Of a stretch of DNA of 5,217 nt, positions 1-5,115 are shown in pieces. This DNA is from a virus. Its lineage: Duplodnaviria; Heunggongvirae; Uroviricota; Caudoviricetes. The stretch lies in IMG/VR virus record IMGVR_UViG_2645727673_000004; one strand, written 5' to 3'. A program made the translations under genes and the position numbers. The notes beneath the pieces are model-generated. The model was not told the origin of the DNA. It worked only from the letters and a program-made list of their open reading frames with translations, and ran no database searches. Each line of letters begins with the position of its first letter. Position 1 is the stretch's first letter.

Positions 1-642
1 CGCCGTCAGTCGCCCGTCCGGTGTAAGGGAAAATGCAGGAGGATTACCGCCGCTGGTAATGGTGGGAGCCGTCAGATATTTCAGGAACACGTCGTTCATG
101 AATATCTGATCACCCTGACCAACAAACATCGGCTTTGTGTTGCCATTCGCAGGATTAATCATCGCAATCCTGTCTGCCGCCAGCAGCACCTGACTCTGCA
201 TTCCTGCTGGCGTATTCTCAATACCGGCACCGATACCCGCAATATAAAGGCGTCCGTCCTGCATCTGCTGCAGTTTCACGGCCCACATGCTGTTCAGGTT
301 ATTATTTGTATCAACCTGAACCTTCTGTATCTGCTGGATCGCTGCACTCTGGTCTTCCAGTTTCTTATTGACGGTCTGTGTGATTTCATTGCTGACATCC
401 GTAATGGATGTCCTGATTTCAGCCAGGTCAGGCGCAAGCTGACCGTTATCAATCTGCGTCCACAGCTCCTGAGCCAGATGGGTTTTCCCTATCTCGCCTT
501 TGAAAAAATCCAGATAGCCGGATGCGTCATCACTCGGCTGACCAACAGCCTCCACGAATGCCGATTTGCCAACGGTGTTCACACTGCGAACGTAAAAATA
601 ATAATTATGGCCCGGTTTGATATTGATACTGGCGGCTAACAT
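1..642 (-). CDS. Lambda J-like tail-tip / host-specificity protein, distal fragment; 5'-truncated and running off the window at its 3' side
   Basis: Minus-strand frame is open from the window edge to ATG at 640-642 (214 codons). Translation is [34 protein letters not shown]...[98 protein letters not shown], which I recognise as the conserved distal part of lambdoid J-family proteins (Fn3-like YYFYVRSVN strand). An in-frame TAA sits two codons upstream (646-648) and there is no SD before the ATG, so the ATG is probably fortuitous. Absent from the ORF track because its stop is outside the window. Confidence 0.6.
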
Positions 643-660
643 CAATTAAGGAGGTTCAAC

Positions 661-783
661 ATGTTTCATTCCACAAATCATCAGGCTGTAATTATGGCTG
701 CATCAGCTTGTGCCACAGACCTTTTCCGCTTCACTTTGAGCCTGATTCATTTCTACCTGACCGGCTCGCCTCTATCTTTTTAA
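661..783 (+). CDS. Hypothetical small protein (40 aa) preceded by a consensus Shine-Dalgarno
   Basis: ATG at 661 lies 6 nt after AAGGAGG (648-654). ORF is MFHSTNHQAVIMAASACATDLFRFTLSLIHFYLTGSPLSF with stop TAA at 781-783. It is below the ORF-track length cutoff. No homolog recognised; coding status uncertain. Confidence 0.3.
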   Translation: MFHSTNHQAVIMAASACATDLFRFTLSLIHFYLTGSPLSF

Positions 784-963: not shown

Positions 964-1257
964 ATGAAAAAAATGTTGTTTTCTGCCGCTCTGGCAATGC
1001 TTATTACAGGATGTGCTCAACAGACGTTTACTGTTGGAAACAAACCGACAGCAGTAACACCAAAGGAAACCATCACCCATCATTTCTTCGTTTCGGGAAT
1101 TGGACAGGAGAAAACTGTTGATGCAGCCAAAATTTGTGGCGGCGCAGAAAATGTTGTTAAAACAGAAACCCAGCAAACATTCGTAAATGGATTTCTCGGT
1201 TTTATTACTTTAGGCATTTATACTCCACTGGAAGCGCGTGTGTATTGCTCACAATAA
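964..1257 (+). CDS. bor: Bor outer-membrane lipoprotein (lambda bor family, serum-resistance lysogenic-conversion protein)
   Basis: Translation MKKMLFSAALAMLITGCAQQTFTVGNKPTAVTPKETITHHFFVSGIGQEKTVDAAKICGGAENVVKTETQQTFVNGFLGFITLGIYTPLEARVYCSQ (97 aa) matches lambda Bor nearly residue for residue as I recall it. Lipobox is LITGC. It is convergent with Rz, as in lambda. The ORF-track start at 916 adds 16 non-homologous residues; ATG 964 chosen. Confidence 0.9.
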   Translation: MKKMLFSAALAMLITGCAQQTFTVGNKPTAVTPKETITHHFFVSGIGQEKTVDAAKICGGAENVVKTETQQTFVNGFLGFITLGIYTPLEARVYCSQ

Positions 1258-1288: not shown

Positions 1289-1750
1289 CTATCTGCACTG
1301 CTCATTAATATACTTCTGGGTTCCTTCCAGTTGTTTTTGCATTGTGATCAGCCTCTCTCTGAGGGTGAAATAATCCCGTTCAGCGGTGTCTGCCAGTCGG
1401 GGGCTGGTTGCATTATCCACGCCGGAGGCGGTGGTGGCTTCACGCACTGACTGACAGACTGCTTTGATGTGCAACCGACGACGACCAGCGGCAACATCAG
1501 CGCGCAGAGTTTCATTTTCAGCTTTCGCATTGGCTAATTCTCTCGAGTACTTTGCATCGAGTGCAGCAACATCACGCTGACGCTGCTGCATGTCAGCGAT
1601 AGTGGCGATCGCCTGCTTCAGCTCACTGACTTTTTTATCACGCTGTTCTTTGTAGGCGATGGCGTTATCACGGTAATGATTGACCGCCCACGACAGGCAG
1701 ACGATGATGCAGATAACCAAAGCATAAATAATCGCGGCGACTCTGCTCAC
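1289..1750 (-). CDS. Rz: Rz i-spanin (inner-membrane spanin subunit)
   Basis: Translation [39 protein letters not shown]...[62 protein letters not shown] is near-identical to lambda Rz. I place the start at GTG 1748-1750, which overlaps the R stop (GTGA) and has GGGGGA 7 nt upstream; this gives 153 aa as in lambda. The ORF-track start at 1765 is a TTG with no SD. Confidence 0.85.
1348..1530 (-). CDS. Rz1: Rz1 o-spanin (outer-membrane lipoprotein), fully embedded in Rz in the +1 frame
   Basis: 60-aa [63 protein letters not shown] has lipobox LVVVGC and a proline-rich stretch, and is near-identical to lambda Rz1. It lies entirely inside Rz. Confidence 0.85.
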
Positions 1751-2280
1751 TGCTCTATCCCCCAACAGGCTAATGCGCTTTCCTGGTCACGACGAATAAC
1801 CTGTCCATAGCAGTTATTTGAACGTATGCGGCAATCGCGCCCACCATCTTTTATCCACCAGCGAATCGCCTCGCATGCGCCCTTACGATCACCGGCATTC
1901 AGCCGCTTATAAAACGTCGACGGGAAACACTTACCGGGGCCAATGTTATAGGGACAGAATGACGCTATACCCGCTTTTTGTGGTTCGGTCAGTAGTACTT
2001 TAATATTGCGCTCCACCCATGCCAGCGCCTTATCACGCTCAATGGCGTTGACCTGGTCGCATTTTTCCTTCGACAGTTTCATACCGGGAAAAACGGGTTT
2101 TCCATCCACCATCGTGGCACCCCGACAGATGGTCCAGATGCCGGACCCATCGCGGTATGCCGTTGTGTGGTTACCTTCTTTTTCATCCAGAAACTGGTCG
2201 AGAATATCAGGCGCGGGCGCACCGACGGCAATCAGTGCCAGAACGGCAGCCGACAGGCCGTATCTGATTTTTGCGTTCAT
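1747..2280 (-). CDS. R: Endolysin, glycoside hydrolase family 24 (T4-lysozyme-like) with N-terminal SAR/signal-anchor segment
   Basis: 177-aa ORF with ATG start. N-terminal weakly hydrophobic Gly/Ala-rich segment [18 protein letters not shown] is followed by the catalytic E-x8-D-x5-T pattern ([16 protein letters not shown]). It matches the endolysins of Stx/lambdoid phages that I recall, and its stop overlaps the Rz start. Confidence 0.9.
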
Positions 2281-2343
2281 GGATATTTATCAGGATTTAT
2301 CGGTTTCTGCCCACGGACAGGTTTATCTGTTCCGGTCAGTGAC

Positions 2344-2694
2344 TTAAGGTTGTGATTCCGGAGGAGTCTTCAGAGAACCAGTAATTCTTCCCGGTAGCTT
2401 TCCTTTGTAGGTTATCCATACATTCTGCGCCTCTAAAATTACGGGGCGCTTTTCCGGCGACTGCTCATCCCCTTCACATAACCCGGCAGCAACATCCAGG
2501 AAGACCTGTCTGATACTCATTCTGGCTGCTGCCTCATAAAACTCCAGCGCGGCACCTTCAACACGGTCCAGCGAGATGTCCAGGTCAAAAATTTCACCGT
2601 CAAAGCGTTTTTTGTCCCGTAACGCTAAAGTTACCGTAACTTTATTCTCAAAATTGCGGATCCCTTTCACAATCAGTTCATAGTTTTGAGTCAT
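2344..2694 (-). CDS. DUF1327-family protein (YdfR-like) located between holin and endolysin
   Basis: 116-aa ORF MTQNYELIVKGIRNFENKVTVTLALRDKKRFDGEIFDLDISLDRVEGAALEFYEAAARMSIRQVFLDVAAG... resembles E. coli Qin-prophage YdfR, which lies between essQ and rrrQ (from memory). ATG at 2694 has GGGGAGAG upstream and sits 4 nt after the holin stop. Confidence 0.7.
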   Translation of the reverse strand: MTQNYELIVKGIRNFENKVTVTLALRDKKRFDGEIFDLDISLDRVEGAALEFYEAAARMSIRQVFLDVAAGLCEGDEQSPEKRPVILEAQNVWITYKGKLPGRITGSLKTPPESQP

Positions 2695-2698
2695 TGAA

Positions 2699-2914
2699 TT
2701 ACTCTCCCCGTGCCGCCTTACGACGGTCCTCTCTGATTTTGAAATACAGGTTAGTCAGATATGTCAGCAGCCCAAACAGCAGACTCCCCAGCACGCCTAT
2801 TGCCGCCCACTGAGACGGGGAAACCCTGTCCAGCAACTGCAGGAACCAGTAGCCCGTTCCCACCGCTGACGTGGTGTATGACACACCTGTTGTGATTTTT
2901 TCCATCTGGTCCAT
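2699..2914 (-). CDS. S: Class II holin / pinholin of the phage 21 S family, with dual-start motif (antiholin from Met1, holin from Met4)
   Basis: Translation [71 protein letters not shown] (71 aa) closely matches S21 as I recall it. Two in-frame ATGs at 2912-2914 and 2903-2905 give the classic dual start, with GGGAGA upstream. The ORF-track N-terminal extension to 3019 begins at GTG and contains a terminator, so it is rejected. Confidence 0.85.
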
Positions 2915-2946
2915 ACCCCGTCTCCCGTTATCCGGAAGCTGACAAC

Positions 2947-2978
2947 AATAAAAAAGCCACCAGTTAACTACTGATGGC
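2947..2978 (-). terminator. Rho-independent terminator on the late strand, immediately upstream of the holin
   Basis: Minus-strand RNA GCCAUCAG-UAGUUAA-CUGGUGGC forms an 8-bp stem with one G-U pair, followed by UUUUUUAUUG. Confidence 0.5.
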
Positions 2979-3221
2979 TCTGATAACTCATGCAAGCGTC
3001 TCAGACGATCCACTGACACTACCGGTGAGTTTAACGATACCTTCCATTTGACTGGCTCACTTTTTATGATGATGCCGGTGTATTTATCTCCAGCACCAGA
3101 CTTTCTATCTCAACGCCATACGTTGCATTTTTGGTAATATCCGTCAGCGTCAGTGCATTTAGTCCCACTGCCAGACCGTCTTTTATGGTCTGGAATGCCG
3201 GGCCAGTACGATGACGTAGTA

Positions 3222-3410
3222 TCACTCCGGCTCAGTTGCACCACTGACCACCACATCACCTTCTGCTGCAATCGCCTGCATCAGGGTATAAGGGGTTATG
3301 GCCACCGGACTACCAAACGGCTGCCAGCCCTCTTTCAGTTTATGTGTCAGCTTTTCCGCAAGATCTGACGGCGGCGCCGCCCTGACAACATCATAGTGTT
3401 TAAATGCCAT
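3222..3410 (-). CDS. Small DUF1737-like protein (62 aa)
   Basis: ORF MAFKHYDVVRAAPPSDLAEKLTHKLKEGWQPFGSPVAITPYTLMQAIAAEGDVVVSGATEPE carries the EGWQP-G motif that I associate with DUF1737 small proteins. ATG 3408-3410 is preceded by GGTGGAAAG; an alternative ATG at 3425 (MVERT...) has no SD. Confidence 0.55.
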   Translation of the reverse strand: MAFKHYDVVRAAPPSDLAEKLTHKLKEGWQPFGSPVAITPYTLMQAIAAEGDVVVSGATEPE

Positions 3411-3670
3411 GGTTCTTTCCACCATCTGAAAAATAATTCTTTAAAATACCAGACATGTAACACAGAAAAAACACAAAACCATACCTTAAATAGAAACCTG
3501 ATCATCAAGCAGATATGCATGGATAAACTACAAGACGAGATATAAACCACCCTGCATTTAAATAAACAATAAACAACATCAGAAAAATAATTCTGCTCTA
3601 TGGTTTATATTCAAAAATATCATTTATACTTTTCAGAACATCACCAGCAAGGCATAAACAAGGAAGCTAA

Positions 3671-4006
3671 ATGAAGTGGATTGTAATTGATACAGTTATC
3701 CAGCCATCATGCGGAATATCTTTTTCAGTCATATGGAGTAAAGTAAAATTAATAATCTGGTATCAATCGGATGCTTTCTTACCTCCTGAAAGTATATTTA
3801 CACTGACTCACACAGGTATCATGCTCAATAACAAAGTGCTACCTGTAACCATTTACAACGTAGTACCATTCAATAAAACATTCTGGAATTTAATCAAAAA
3901 CAGCCAGGAATGCCCTACAAATACAGATAACGTATTGAATGAATGCTTTAATAACCGTTGCATTCTGCAAATATGTCCTTATGGACTAAAACAACAAAGT
4001 CCATAA
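3671..4006 (+). CDS. Hypothetical protein, AT-rich orphan ORF (111 aa) opposite to the late operon
   Basis: ATG at 3671 is preceded by AAGGAAG (3660-3666). A 111-codon open frame in strongly AT-rich sequence is unlikely by chance because stop codons are AT-rich. Protein is [111 protein letters not shown]; no family recognised. Confidence 0.45.
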
Positions 4007-4027: not shown

Positions 4028-4062
4028 AAATCAATATAAACAGCCCCTCCGGAGAGGGGCTG
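4028..4062 (-). terminator. Rho-independent terminator on the late strand (3' end of repeat unit R1)
   Basis: Perfect 9-bp GC-rich stem CAGCCCCUC-(4-nt loop)-GAGGGGCUG at 4041-4062, followed on the minus strand by UUUAUAUUGAUUUUGUC. There is no U-tract on the plus side. Confidence 0.6.
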
Positions 4063-4276
4063 GAGAGTGGCGCTATGTGCCATTGCATGGTGCCGGGTGC
4101 CTCCCGGTGAATTCAGTACCAGCACCTGAATCCGCGATTATCCCATATACCTACTCGCTGATTACCCCTCCGCACAGGGGGATTCACCATGCGAAATTTT
4201 TTAACAAACTTCCCGCCGGCCAGACAATAATCGCCAGCCTGAATTATGAGCAACGTGGCATTTTACGGGAAAACTG
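4041..4276. repeat. Repeat unit R1 of a diverged ~240-bp direct repeat (paralog of 4505-4746)
   Basis: Aligns with 4505-4746 along its whole length with several indels, roughly three-quarters identical by eye. Shared blocks include the 20-mer AGCCCCTCCGGAGAGGGGCT, GCATGGTGCC-GG-GCCTCCCGGT-AATTCAG, GGGGGATTCACCATGCG and TTTTTAACAAA...CCAGACAAT. Confidence 0.75.
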
Positions 4277-4283
4277 TTTTCTG

Positions 4284-4310
4284 CAGTAAAAAGGCCCGCC
4301 GGAGCGAGCC
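4284..4310 (-). terminator. Imperfect GC-hairpin terminator on the late strand, upstream boundary of R1
   Basis: GGCCCGC-CGGA-GCGAGCC at 4293-4310 has a 7-bp stem with one mismatch and the same CGGA loop as the repeat hairpins, followed on the minus strand by UUUUUAC. Confidence 0.4.
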
Positions 4311-4496
4311 TGGAAGGATAGCGGTCATGTGATGCCGGTTTCCCGGTAACTCAGCATCGGTATCTGAGTCAACGTTTTCTCTACTGGGTCATTTCCGATA
4401 CGTTCCGCCTTCCGGCAGACTTTCATCACGTCAGAAAATATAGCACCCTGAGTAACAGGACAGTACTCAGAATTCAGGAAACTGTGACACATCCTG

Positions 4497-4524
4497 CACA
4501 GAAAAGCCCCTCCGGAGAGGGGCT
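4497..4524 (-). terminator. Rho-independent terminator on the late strand (3' end of repeat unit R2)
   Basis: Perfect 8-bp stem AGCCCCUC-(4-nt loop)-GAGGGGCU at 4505-4524, followed on the minus strand by UUUUCUGUGC. Confidence 0.55.
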
Positions 4525-4746
4525 GAAGTATAGCCTAATTTCTGTCTGTCGCATGGTGCCAGGGGCCTCCCGGTAAATTCAGCCTGTCTACTGAATTTGC
4601 ATGTTCTCTGGATCATACACTTTGCCAGATGCCCCGCCGCTGAGGGGGATTCACCATGCGATGTAATTTTTAACAAATTCTCCGGCAGCCAGACAATCAT
4701 CAAGCTGTGGAATTGTGAGGTATTTAAAAATTTCAACGGGTAACTG
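4505..4746. repeat. Repeat unit R2 (paralog of 4041-4276)
   Basis: See R1. Same block order and orientation, and the same palindromic 20-mer at its left end. Confidence 0.75.
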
Positions 4747-5039: not shown

Positions 5040-5115
5040 TGGTGGCCCTTGCTGGATTTGAACCAGCGACCTGGCGATTATGAGTCGCTCGCTCTCACCA
5101 CTGAGCTAAAGGGCC
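5040..5115 (-). tRNA. tRNA with CAU anticodon, most similar to tRNA-Ile2 (ileX/ileZ-like, lysidine type); may be annotated tRNA-Met
   Basis: Minus strand GGCCCTTTAGCTCAGTGGTGAGAGCGAGCGACTCATAATCGCCAGGTCGCTGGTTCAAATCCAGCAAGGGCCACCA is 76 nt and folds as a canonical cloverleaf: 7-bp acceptor stem, GCTC/GAGC D-stem, anticodon loop CUCAUAA, T-arm GCTGG-TTCAAAT-CCAGC, encoded CCA. It differs at only a handful of positions from E. coli ileX as I recall it. Confidence 0.9.

Follow-up and report, generated by a model that had tools for sequence, protein, structure and literature searches.

A 40-codon open reading frame beside a deletion junction in a defective lambdoid prophage, and a candidate family of small phage genes preceded by phage-type promoter look-alikes

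We analysed a small open reading frame (ORF) in a 5,217-nucleotide stretch of IMG/VR record IMGVR_UViG_2645727673_000004 (the window, meaning the whole stretch at its full length). The window is a defective lambdoid prophage, and the forward direction of the phage corresponds to its minus strand. The ORF (661–783, plus strand) comprises 40 codons and a TAA stop and encodes MFHSTNHQAVIMAASACATDLFRFTLSLIHFYLTGSPLSF. It very probably belongs to a real, hitherto undescribed family of small genes carried by temperate phages of Enterobacteriaceae, in which the ORF follows an array of sequences resembling the promoters of T7-type and SP6-type phages. As a whole, the best explanation is that the window holds an intact member of this family whose promoters have been lost, a reading to which we assign a probability of about 0.55. 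The odds are roughly even, judging from sequence comparison, that the product is a small toxic peptide which would be transcribed by the RNA polymerase of an invading phage and so abort the infection.

Results

The ORF and its translation signals

The initial annotation had described a Shine-Dalgarno (SD) sequence followed by an ATG, opening a 40-codon ORF just upstream of a same-strand bor gene, and each of these elements was exactly as described. The SD, TAAGGAGGT, was read directly from the sequence at 647–655 (plus strand); the ATG at 661 lies 5 nt past this 9-mer and 6 nt past its GGAGG core, and the bor/iss lipoprotein gene (964–1257, plus strand; annotated Iss/Bor in matching records) begins 180 nt downstream of the ORF, as a neighbour outside the unit described below. 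The pattern AAGGAGGT-N5-ATG occurs once in the window. Allowing up to one mismatch, 0.14 matches were expected, and at least one was found in 26 of 200 shuffles. In a single window alone, the signal is only mildly unusual. It becomes significant because SD and ATG are kept in every related locus, even where the flanking DNA is unrelated. The window SD is identical in phage SfIV and in the aligned E. coli prophages, it is weakened to a GGAAG core in one subgroup (loci L039 and L080), and the predicted fold of the native leader leaves it unpaired.

The SD, the ATG and the full ORF of the window are intact and identical to the common allele. AlphaFold predicted a single helix over residues 2–34 of the window peptide (mean predicted local distance difference test score 83). 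The family peptides are hydrophobic (grand average of hydropathy 0.45–1.69), with a best 19-residue hydropathy value of 1.40 for the window peptide; other classes reached 2.4. Sequence searches of Pfam, PHROGs, NCBIfam, PADLOC and PDB with between one and ten family peptides produced no credible match; ten representative peptides (Pfam, NCBIfam, PHROGs, PADLOC) showed no membership in described type I toxin families.

A family of small ORFs in intact temperate phages

The same ORF was found in M217-type prophages, which carry the identical 40-residue peptide, and in phage ON470612, where it is annotated as hypothetical. More widely, the same 40-residue ORF lies between the lysis genes and the HNH/terminase genes of intact HK97-like prophages and of SfIV; the SfIV ORF is of equal length, with the SD, the ATG and the C-terminal half identical. 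The exact peptide was indexed in 237 blocks of an assembly collection, and at all ten of the places listed, all of them intact prophages, HNH, terS and terL lie upstream.

Throughout these loci the small ORF is convergent to lysC, the gene of an Rz1-like spanin, and overlaps its 3' end. We scanned IMG/VR with a pattern anchored on the lysC tail. Only the first base of this pattern, the final one of the stop codon, falls within the ORF; the anchor was chosen because ascertainment bias was to be avoided. The scan returned 104 distinct upstream regions, 80 of which had a hydrophobic ORF of 32–41 codons ending at the same stop. All 80 ORF-bearing loci possessed an ATG with a GGAG-core SD 5–8 nt upstream. 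The peptides and flanking DNA of the 80 loci fell into several mutually unalignable classes, exemplified by MSHIEIIQLIDSYVLLATHIICLIIAYRKLIADLSRRS, MSQNQFFELAKAYADGINAIISLICLLIAKHYGVLQYF and MLEVLNSLAPFAPAINAIVILICSIIAKYYGVLPLPF, and by MLKISLLSTIVNHKITFAVIYFLLSLIHFYLTGSPLSF from Klebsiella. SfV-type phages lack the unit: their lysC adjoins the HNH gene, and an open antisense frame is retained without any SD.

The window shares two features with this family, the SD with its ATG and a hydrophobic ORF of 32–41 codons ending in the lysC GI(K/R) codons. The third, a T7-group promoter sequence on the same strand no more than about 450 nt before the ORF start, is absent from the window and present in 74 of the 80 relatives. 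The full unit of upstream promoter-like sequences and ORF, referred to below as the cassette, was carried, without annotation, by 626 of the 5,426 complete E. coli genomes (~11.5%), and also in prophages of Klebsiella, Shigella, Enterobacter and Pseudocitrobacter. The small ORF is never annotated by the Prokaryotic Genome Annotation Pipeline (PGAP).

Phage-type promoter look-alikes precede the ORF in most relatives

Position weight matrices (PWMs) were built from 17 annotated T7 promoters, 13 annotated K11 promoters and 11 SP6 consensus-match sites (all on the forward strand), and 2.23 M positions of temperate-phage loci were scanned with them at a threshold of at least 12 bits. There were 207 such sites, 195 of which lay on the ORF strand no more than 560 nt upstream of the ORF stop, against 5.6 expected. 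One to four promoter-like sequences, in tandem and on the same strand, precede the ORF in 74 of the 80 loci that have it and in none of the 24 that do not. Across the 104 loci, 74 had ORF and promoter, six the ORF only, 24 neither and none the promoter only (Fisher P = 3e-18), so that the promoter matches were linked exclusively to the ORF. The six ORF-bearing loci without a promoter are the window itself and five with look-alikes of other specificity (e.g. T3-like).

Several of these sites, which span 23 nt from −17 to +6, scored like natural promoters. Natural promoters scored 26–39 bits, with minima of 26–30 bits (T7, 26.0; K11, 29.7). The T7-type cassette site CAATACGACTCACTATTGGGGAA (32.1 bits), the SP6-type site ATTTAGGTGACACTTTAGAAGGA of SfIV (31.9 bits) and the site TAATGCGACTCACTATAGAGAGA (31.7 bits) fell within the natural range, and the K11-type site AATTAGGGCCCACTATAGAGACC (28.8 bits) was slightly under the K11 minimum. 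The T7-like site of the M217 type, CAATACAACTCACTAATGGAGAG, matched other T7-family phages over 21–31 nt. The second promoter of the M217 type, the SP6-type site ATTTACTGGACACTATAGAAGGA, scored 29.0 bits, likewise within the natural range. It was identical at 23 of 23 positions to one of the 10 promoter-like sites on the forward strand within the first 32.4 kb of the E. coli Vectrevirus AAPEc6; another AAPEc6 site, with a 22/23 match, precedes the AAPEc6 capsid gene.

The arrays resembled promoters of lytic podophages that infect the same host genus. E. coli and Shigella arrays combined T7/Berlin-like with SP6/Vectrevirus-like sequences, and Klebsiella arrays combined T7/K11-like and Klebsiella-SP6-like sequences, plus a further element matched once in KP34-like phages. 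The second Klebsiella element matched, at 20–21 of 23 positions, copies of TAATAGTGGCGAGTATAGAAG, an 11-copy forward-strand motif of Klebsiella phage FBKp16 (Molineuxvirinae). The further element, AATTTAA(A/T)GTTACCGGAGTAGGAACAG, lies ~130–150 nt upstream of the ATG (e.g. locus L030, minus strand). It corresponds to a single site per genome in KP34-like Klebsiella podophages (24 nt, 96% identity), and in one KP34-like record the match adjoins the RNA polymerase gene.

Low-stringency BLAST of the leaders matched hundreds of Autographiviridae genomes of 38–45 kb, often at several places per genome; in records of T7 and Yersinia phages some of these places bear the annotation 'promoter'. The idea that the cassette is a piece of podophage genome was rejected: at E ≤ 1e-5 it matched only temperate phages, and the podophage matches were promoter- or hairpin-sized. 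The idea that the carrier phage transcribes the cassette with a polymerase of its own was rejected for SfIV, as its complete genome has no RNA polymerase gene. In SfIV, the best T7-type and SP6-type sites genome-wide (26.2 and 31.9 bits) are both at this locus, and the next best reached at most 14.3 bits. No sigma-70-like promoter was found in the native upstream region (L001, 2600–3400), and terminator and sigma-70 scans of the window and of the native context gave nothing convincing upstream of the ORF.

Two further observations concern the distribution of these sequences. In three loci (L027, L070 and L094) a K11-like look-alike, AATTATGCGCCACTATAGACAGA (16.9 bits), lies on the minus strand inside the lysis region, 413 nt right of the anchor; it is among the very few phage-type look-alikes outside the cassette. 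In E. coli B-JRPT-4119 (L006), the HNH 5' end and the promoter/hairpin region are tandemly duplicated (1100–1240 versus 1390–1530), with the ORF missing and the SD degraded to ATTACGGAGCTTCAACAC in the upstream copy.

A palindromic hairpin follows the first promoter

Downstream of the first promoter lies a conserved palindrome, predicted to form a hairpin (2919–2948 in L001, and also in L004, L008, L030 and others), which is absent from the window. Its commonest form, TTGTCCAAC-NN-GTTGGACAA, occurred at 41 loci, and the form TTGTCTCAC-NN-GTGAGACAA at 10. The variants GTCCAAC..GTTGGAC and GTCTCAC..GTGAGAC are two compensatory pairs apart. The same palindromes adjoin promoter-like sites in the SP6-like lytic phages AAPEc6 (Vectrevirus) and FBKp16. 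The scan flagged the hairpin as terminator-like; possible functions are termination or insulation, processing and protein binding.

The window has lost the control region, not the ORF

The junction reported in the initial annotation is real. It falls at 636/637: intact prophages are homologous from 637 on, 10 nt ahead of the SD, and homology to the lambda-type tail-tip gene J extends to 636–638. The 3' part of J occupies 1–636 on the minus strand and runs off the window; positions 401–638 were 97.5% identical to a pseudogene of E. coli AF44 annotated 'phage tail tip domain-containing protein'. In M217 and ON470612, the equivalent of 637 is preceded on the left by ~200 nt of intergenic sequence, an HNH endonuclease gene, a P27-family small terminase gene and the large terminase gene. 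Because the window has J where these relatives have HNH and terminase genes, it carries an internal deletion that begins 10 nt before the SD, takes out the packaging, head and tail genes and ends in the middle of J. Neither the 5,426 complete E. coli genomes nor the GTDB species representatives contained the exact J junction of the window.

This deletion took all promoters and the hairpin from the window copy. The part lost is the upstream control region of the small ORF; the ORF itself was not cut. A PWM scan of the window found no phage-type promoter (best scores 0.3, 7.8 and 6.5 bits). The sole promoter-like site now upstream of the ORF is a pair of sigma-70-like hexamers, TTCACA-16-AATAAT (578–605, plus strand), within the J fragment, and this is at chance level (one found versus 2.1 expected from shuffles). 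Since the deletion removed the promoters, the window copy is probably silent: an orphan, disarmed and no longer responsive.

A second, older mosaic joint lies at ~849/850, where SfIV homology ends (850) and lambda-type identity begins (849). From 849 on, the segment upstream of bor (849–963) is 100% identical to lambda and phage 434. The SfIV-type lysis genes gave way here to a lambda-type Rz/Rz1-bor module.

The AF44 prophage (locus L003, NZ_OZ547155) offers a parallel. At ~2957–3035, corresponding to window position ~782, an independent deletion fuses a J fragment beside iss/bor. Its endpoint is ~145 nt further right, and the whole small ORF is gone. There have thus been two separate deletions from J to the bor region, ending less than 150 bp apart.

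Overlap with lysC and selection on the two frames

The minus strand at 731–859 is a relic of the 3' end of a lysC/Rz1-like o-spanin gene, with its stop at 731–733. Positions 637–850 were 86% identical to SfIV, in which the minus strand equivalent to 731–850 is the end of gp53 (Rz1-like o-spanin). PGAP names the equivalent stretch lysC in intact E. coli loci, and in strain MLI107 annotates the equivalent of 731–859 as 'Rz1 lytic protein, pseudogene, missing N-terminus'. The window stretch encodes the conserved C-terminal tail ...QCNLDKAGIKKIEASRSGRNESGSK (...QCNLDKAGI(K/R)). Compared with a LysC/Rz1-like o-spanin (PF23793), it retains this tail, in the C-terminal ~37–40 codons, and lacks the lipobox and the N-terminus. 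It is a spanin relic and not a gene, because the lambda-type Rz/Rz1-bor module replaced the lipobox and N-terminus.

The last 53 nt of the small ORF, including its stop codon at 781–783, lie antisense within this relic. The initial annotation had named alignment of the region to an unrelated longer gene in another frame as a point that would count against the ORF. Half of this was found: there is such a relic, on the opposite strand, but in the sequence class of the window the substitutions in the overlap spare the frame of the small ORF and not that of lysC. The phase of the overlap makes the two frames distinguishable, with ORF codon position 3 facing lysC position 2, and ORF position 2 facing the lysC wobble position. 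In the sequence class of the window (23 distinct DNAs), overlap codons 25–40 showed 9 synonymous and 2 non-synonymous changes, distributed 1, 1 and 9 over codon positions 1, 2 and 3 (binomial P = 2e-4; 2e-3 with transitions only). All ORF position-3 changes in the overlap fell on lysC position 2, as K/R and N/S replacements in lysC. Within lysC-only sequence the bias flipped to the lysC wobble position (60 versus 24–27). The lysC tail of the window class thus shows conservative non-synonymous changes, a pattern that looks as if the antisense ORF sets the constraint.

For the other classes, pooled N-terminal halves had 34 synonymous changes out of 90, against 23% expected (P = 0.001), and the second codon position varied least. 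These substitution patterns suggest that the N-terminal halves of other classes are under modest purifying selection.

The lysC tails themselves (L004–L137) diverge strongly after ...QCNLDKAGI(R/K), with variable C-terminal tails of 8–20 residues. This variable tail is exactly the part that the small ORF overlaps.

Other features of the window

To the right of bor/iss, the minus strand carries a DUF1737 gene, a holin gene, a YdfR-family gene, a lysozyme gene and Rz/Rz1 (together 1289–3425). An IraM-like ORF of 111 amino acids (3671–4006, plus strand), whose equivalents in matching genomes are annotated anti-adapter protein IraM, forms a cargo gene within the prophage late region. Rfam matches to the small RNA (sRNA) STnc100 (RF02076) were found on the minus strand, two of them strong (4032–4220 and 4496–4689; 132.5 and 138 bits, gathering score 47) and one weak (4285–4460; 30 bits); the three lie in tandem from the tRNA side to the side of the IraM-like ORF. 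A tRNA gene with anticodon CAT (5040–5115, minus strand) was called tRNA-Met by ARAGORN. It lies where Stx-type lambdoid phages carry tRNA genes, so it may be of the Ile (lysidine) type.

Discussion

A possible trap for invading polymerases

T7-type phages shut down the host RNA polymerase and rely for transcription on an enzyme of their own with high promoter specificity (summarised in PMC11436027). This behaviour suggests how an intact cassette might work. The cassette would be silent in the lysogen. On infection by a T7- or SP6-type phage, the invader's RNA polymerase would transcribe it, and would still be active after the phage has shut off host transcription. The peptide would then be made in quantity and damage the inner membrane, and the infection would be aborted. 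Several promoters would widen the coverage of podophage polymerases, and alleles differing in the specificity region (−12 to −8) would follow different polymerases. In its fullest form, which we put tentatively at a little short of even odds, the cassette would be a protein-free infection sensor: an array of decoy promoters (T7-like, SP6/Vectrevirus-like, K11-like and possibly KP34-like) wired to a tiny membrane toxin. Swaps at −12 to −8 would then record an arms race, and the window would be a naturally disarmed allele.

A small membrane peptide, one of three options offered in the initial annotation, is the one the evidence favours, given a hydrophobic family of 32–41 residues, conserved translation signals and a predicted helix. 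Sequence comparison shows the family, the conservation of its translation signals, the promoter matches, the exclusive linkage of these matches to the ORF and the lack of a host-type promoter; recognition by phage polymerases, toxicity and defence are inferred.

Several points weigh against the proposed mechanism. The function is deduced from sequence patterns. The hydrophobicity of the window class is borderline for a membrane span (best windows 1.40 and, for SfIV, 0.90). Window-class codons 2–24, with 8 synonymous and 28 non-synonymous changes, match the neutral expectation and indicate no purifying selection, and in class G2 it is the wobble position of lysC, not that of the ORF, that changes in the overlap follow. 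The T7-like site of the M217 type, at 22.4 bits, is under the T7 minimum of 26.0. The promoter and hairpin modules could be scars of recombination with podophages. Finally, T7-type phages degrade host DNA, which limits the time for expression.

Alternative explanations

The alternative that survives best, although unlikely, is that the ORF encodes a genuine small prophage membrane protein unrelated to foreign polymerases, acting in lysis timing, superinfection exclusion or as some other moron product. Host RNA polymerase or prophage transcripts would express it, and the T7/SP6-like sequences would be podophage recombination scars or mosaic boundaries. Such capture is plausible because hairpin-promoter modules are repeated elements of SP6-like phage genomes. 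The moron-like position of the cassette, present or absent between lysC and the HNH gene, agrees with this explanation, as does the conservation of the translation signals. It has more difficulty with the upstream region, where no sigma-70-like promoter was found and where look-alikes of several podophage groups are stacked in one orientation before the SD in many diverged lineages. Nor does it readily account for their occurrence at none of the 24 loci without the ORF and almost nowhere else in 2.2 Mb.

It is conceivable, if distinctly improbable, that the ORF mRNA and the convergent lysC/late transcript, overlapping by ~50 nt, form a type I toxin-antitoxin-like or other antisense pair under mutual control. 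Its role would be prophage maintenance or lysis control, and the window, with its lysC relic, would be a decayed remnant. A small, hydrophobic, predicted helical peptide behind a strong SD is what such a pair would have, and the antisense overlap with the lysC 3' end is conserved, with both frames constrained. However, no dedicated antitoxin RNA or promoter was found, the Rfam scan of the window had no match in 600–960, and the peptides show no similarity to known type I toxin families. Moreover, the cassette persists in Klebsiella and in M217-type loci where lysC is itself a relic (overlap 89% identical). An antisense pair would leave the promoter array unexplained, and it could coexist with expression by an invader's polymerase.

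That the ORF is not a gene at all appears about equally improbable. It would then be no more than the reversed lysC tail plus spacer, with the SD part of some other DNA or RNA element, such as the opposite-strand late transcript. The C-terminal 17 codons do lie antisense to lysC, evolution of the N-terminal half is neutral in the E. coli class, PGAP leaves the ORF unannotated, and SfV-type loci show that an open antisense frame can exist without an SD. Against this, the ATG, the spaced GGAG-core SD and a length of 32–41 codons recur in lineages with unrelated N-terminal and upstream sequences. Overlap substitutions in the window class are synonymous for the ORF and non-synonymous for lysC, and in the other classes it is codon position 2 that varies least.

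The two remaining options of the initial annotation, a leader peptide (or upstream ORF) of bor/iss and the stump of a longer gene cut by the deletion, were prompted by the shared strand, the 180-nt distance and the adjoining junction, and are contradicted by the comparative context to the point of being highly improbable: SfIV and Klebsiella phages have the ORF without bor, the sequence upstream of bor is of separate, lambda origin and was joined on at ~849, and intact prophages carry the identical 40-residue ORF, so that nothing has been truncated.

Implications

If an invader's polymerase does switch on the cassette, prophages would carry a very compact anti-phage device, of ~300–450 bp and without a sensor protein. 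It would explain how a defence based on gene expression can operate after T7-type shut-off of host transcription. There would also be consequences for phage therapy, since lysogens could fail to support the growth of Autographiviridae phages such as K1-specific and Klebsiella podophages. Prophage DNA would then be a readable catalogue of the promoter specificities of the podophages met by the host. The cassette escapes annotation and defence-finder tools. For annotation, the ORF is a concrete case of a real gene of fewer than 50 codons overlapping another gene antisense. In the window, the ORF is intact while its control region is gone, and this allele would be a naturally occurring negative control.

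Comparison with known systems

The closest likeness in layout is to the late (class III) unit of T7, the phi10 leader used in pET vectors. Like it, intact relatives have a T7-group promoter of 23 nt, a hairpin at or close to the predicted start of the transcript, the SD AAGGAGGT and the ATG. Unlike the T7 unit, the cassette sits in temperate phages without a single-subunit RNA polymerase (SfIV), has tandem promoters of differing specificity and drives only a peptide of 36–41 amino acids; the window copy has no promoters.

In its product, the small ORF resembles the type I toxins (Hok/Gef, Ldr, TisB, Ibs, ShoB and ZorO), which are likewise small hydrophobic helical peptides with a strong SD, a convergent overlapping transcript and carriage on mobile elements. 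The hok/sok system has been reported to exclude T4. The small ORF differs in having no sequence relationship to these toxins and no identified antitoxin sRNA. Its antisense partner is only the lysC 3' end or late transcript, with no dedicated sRNA promoter in the scans, and under the proposed mechanism expression would be set off by the invader's polymerase, not by an antitoxin RNA decaying.

In its logic, the proposed mechanism resembles systems in which a silent cassette is expressed only with the invader's transcription machinery. The late promoters of P4 are activated by P2 Ogr, lactococcal AbiD1 is switched on by a phage-encoded transcription factor, and in the engineered lactococcal 'triggered suicide' cassette a phage-inducible promoter drives a lethal gene. 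In contrast to these, the sensor here would be the promoter specificity of single-subunit RNA polymerases, in an array of several specificities within a natural prophage cassette.

In its position, the cassette resembles the lambdoid morons (bor, lom and HK97 gp15), being an accessory gene between conserved modules, on the opposite strand, and present or absent in relatives; the window ORF adjoins bor itself. A typical moron is expressed in the lysogen from a sigma-70 promoter of its own and has its own terminator, whereas the cassette has no sigma-70-like promoter. No description of such a system was found in the literature, of which coverage was limited, so this is weak evidence of absence only. 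The kind of system would be a known one, prophage-borne abortive infection with a small membrane toxin, and what would be new is the principle of sensing without a protein.

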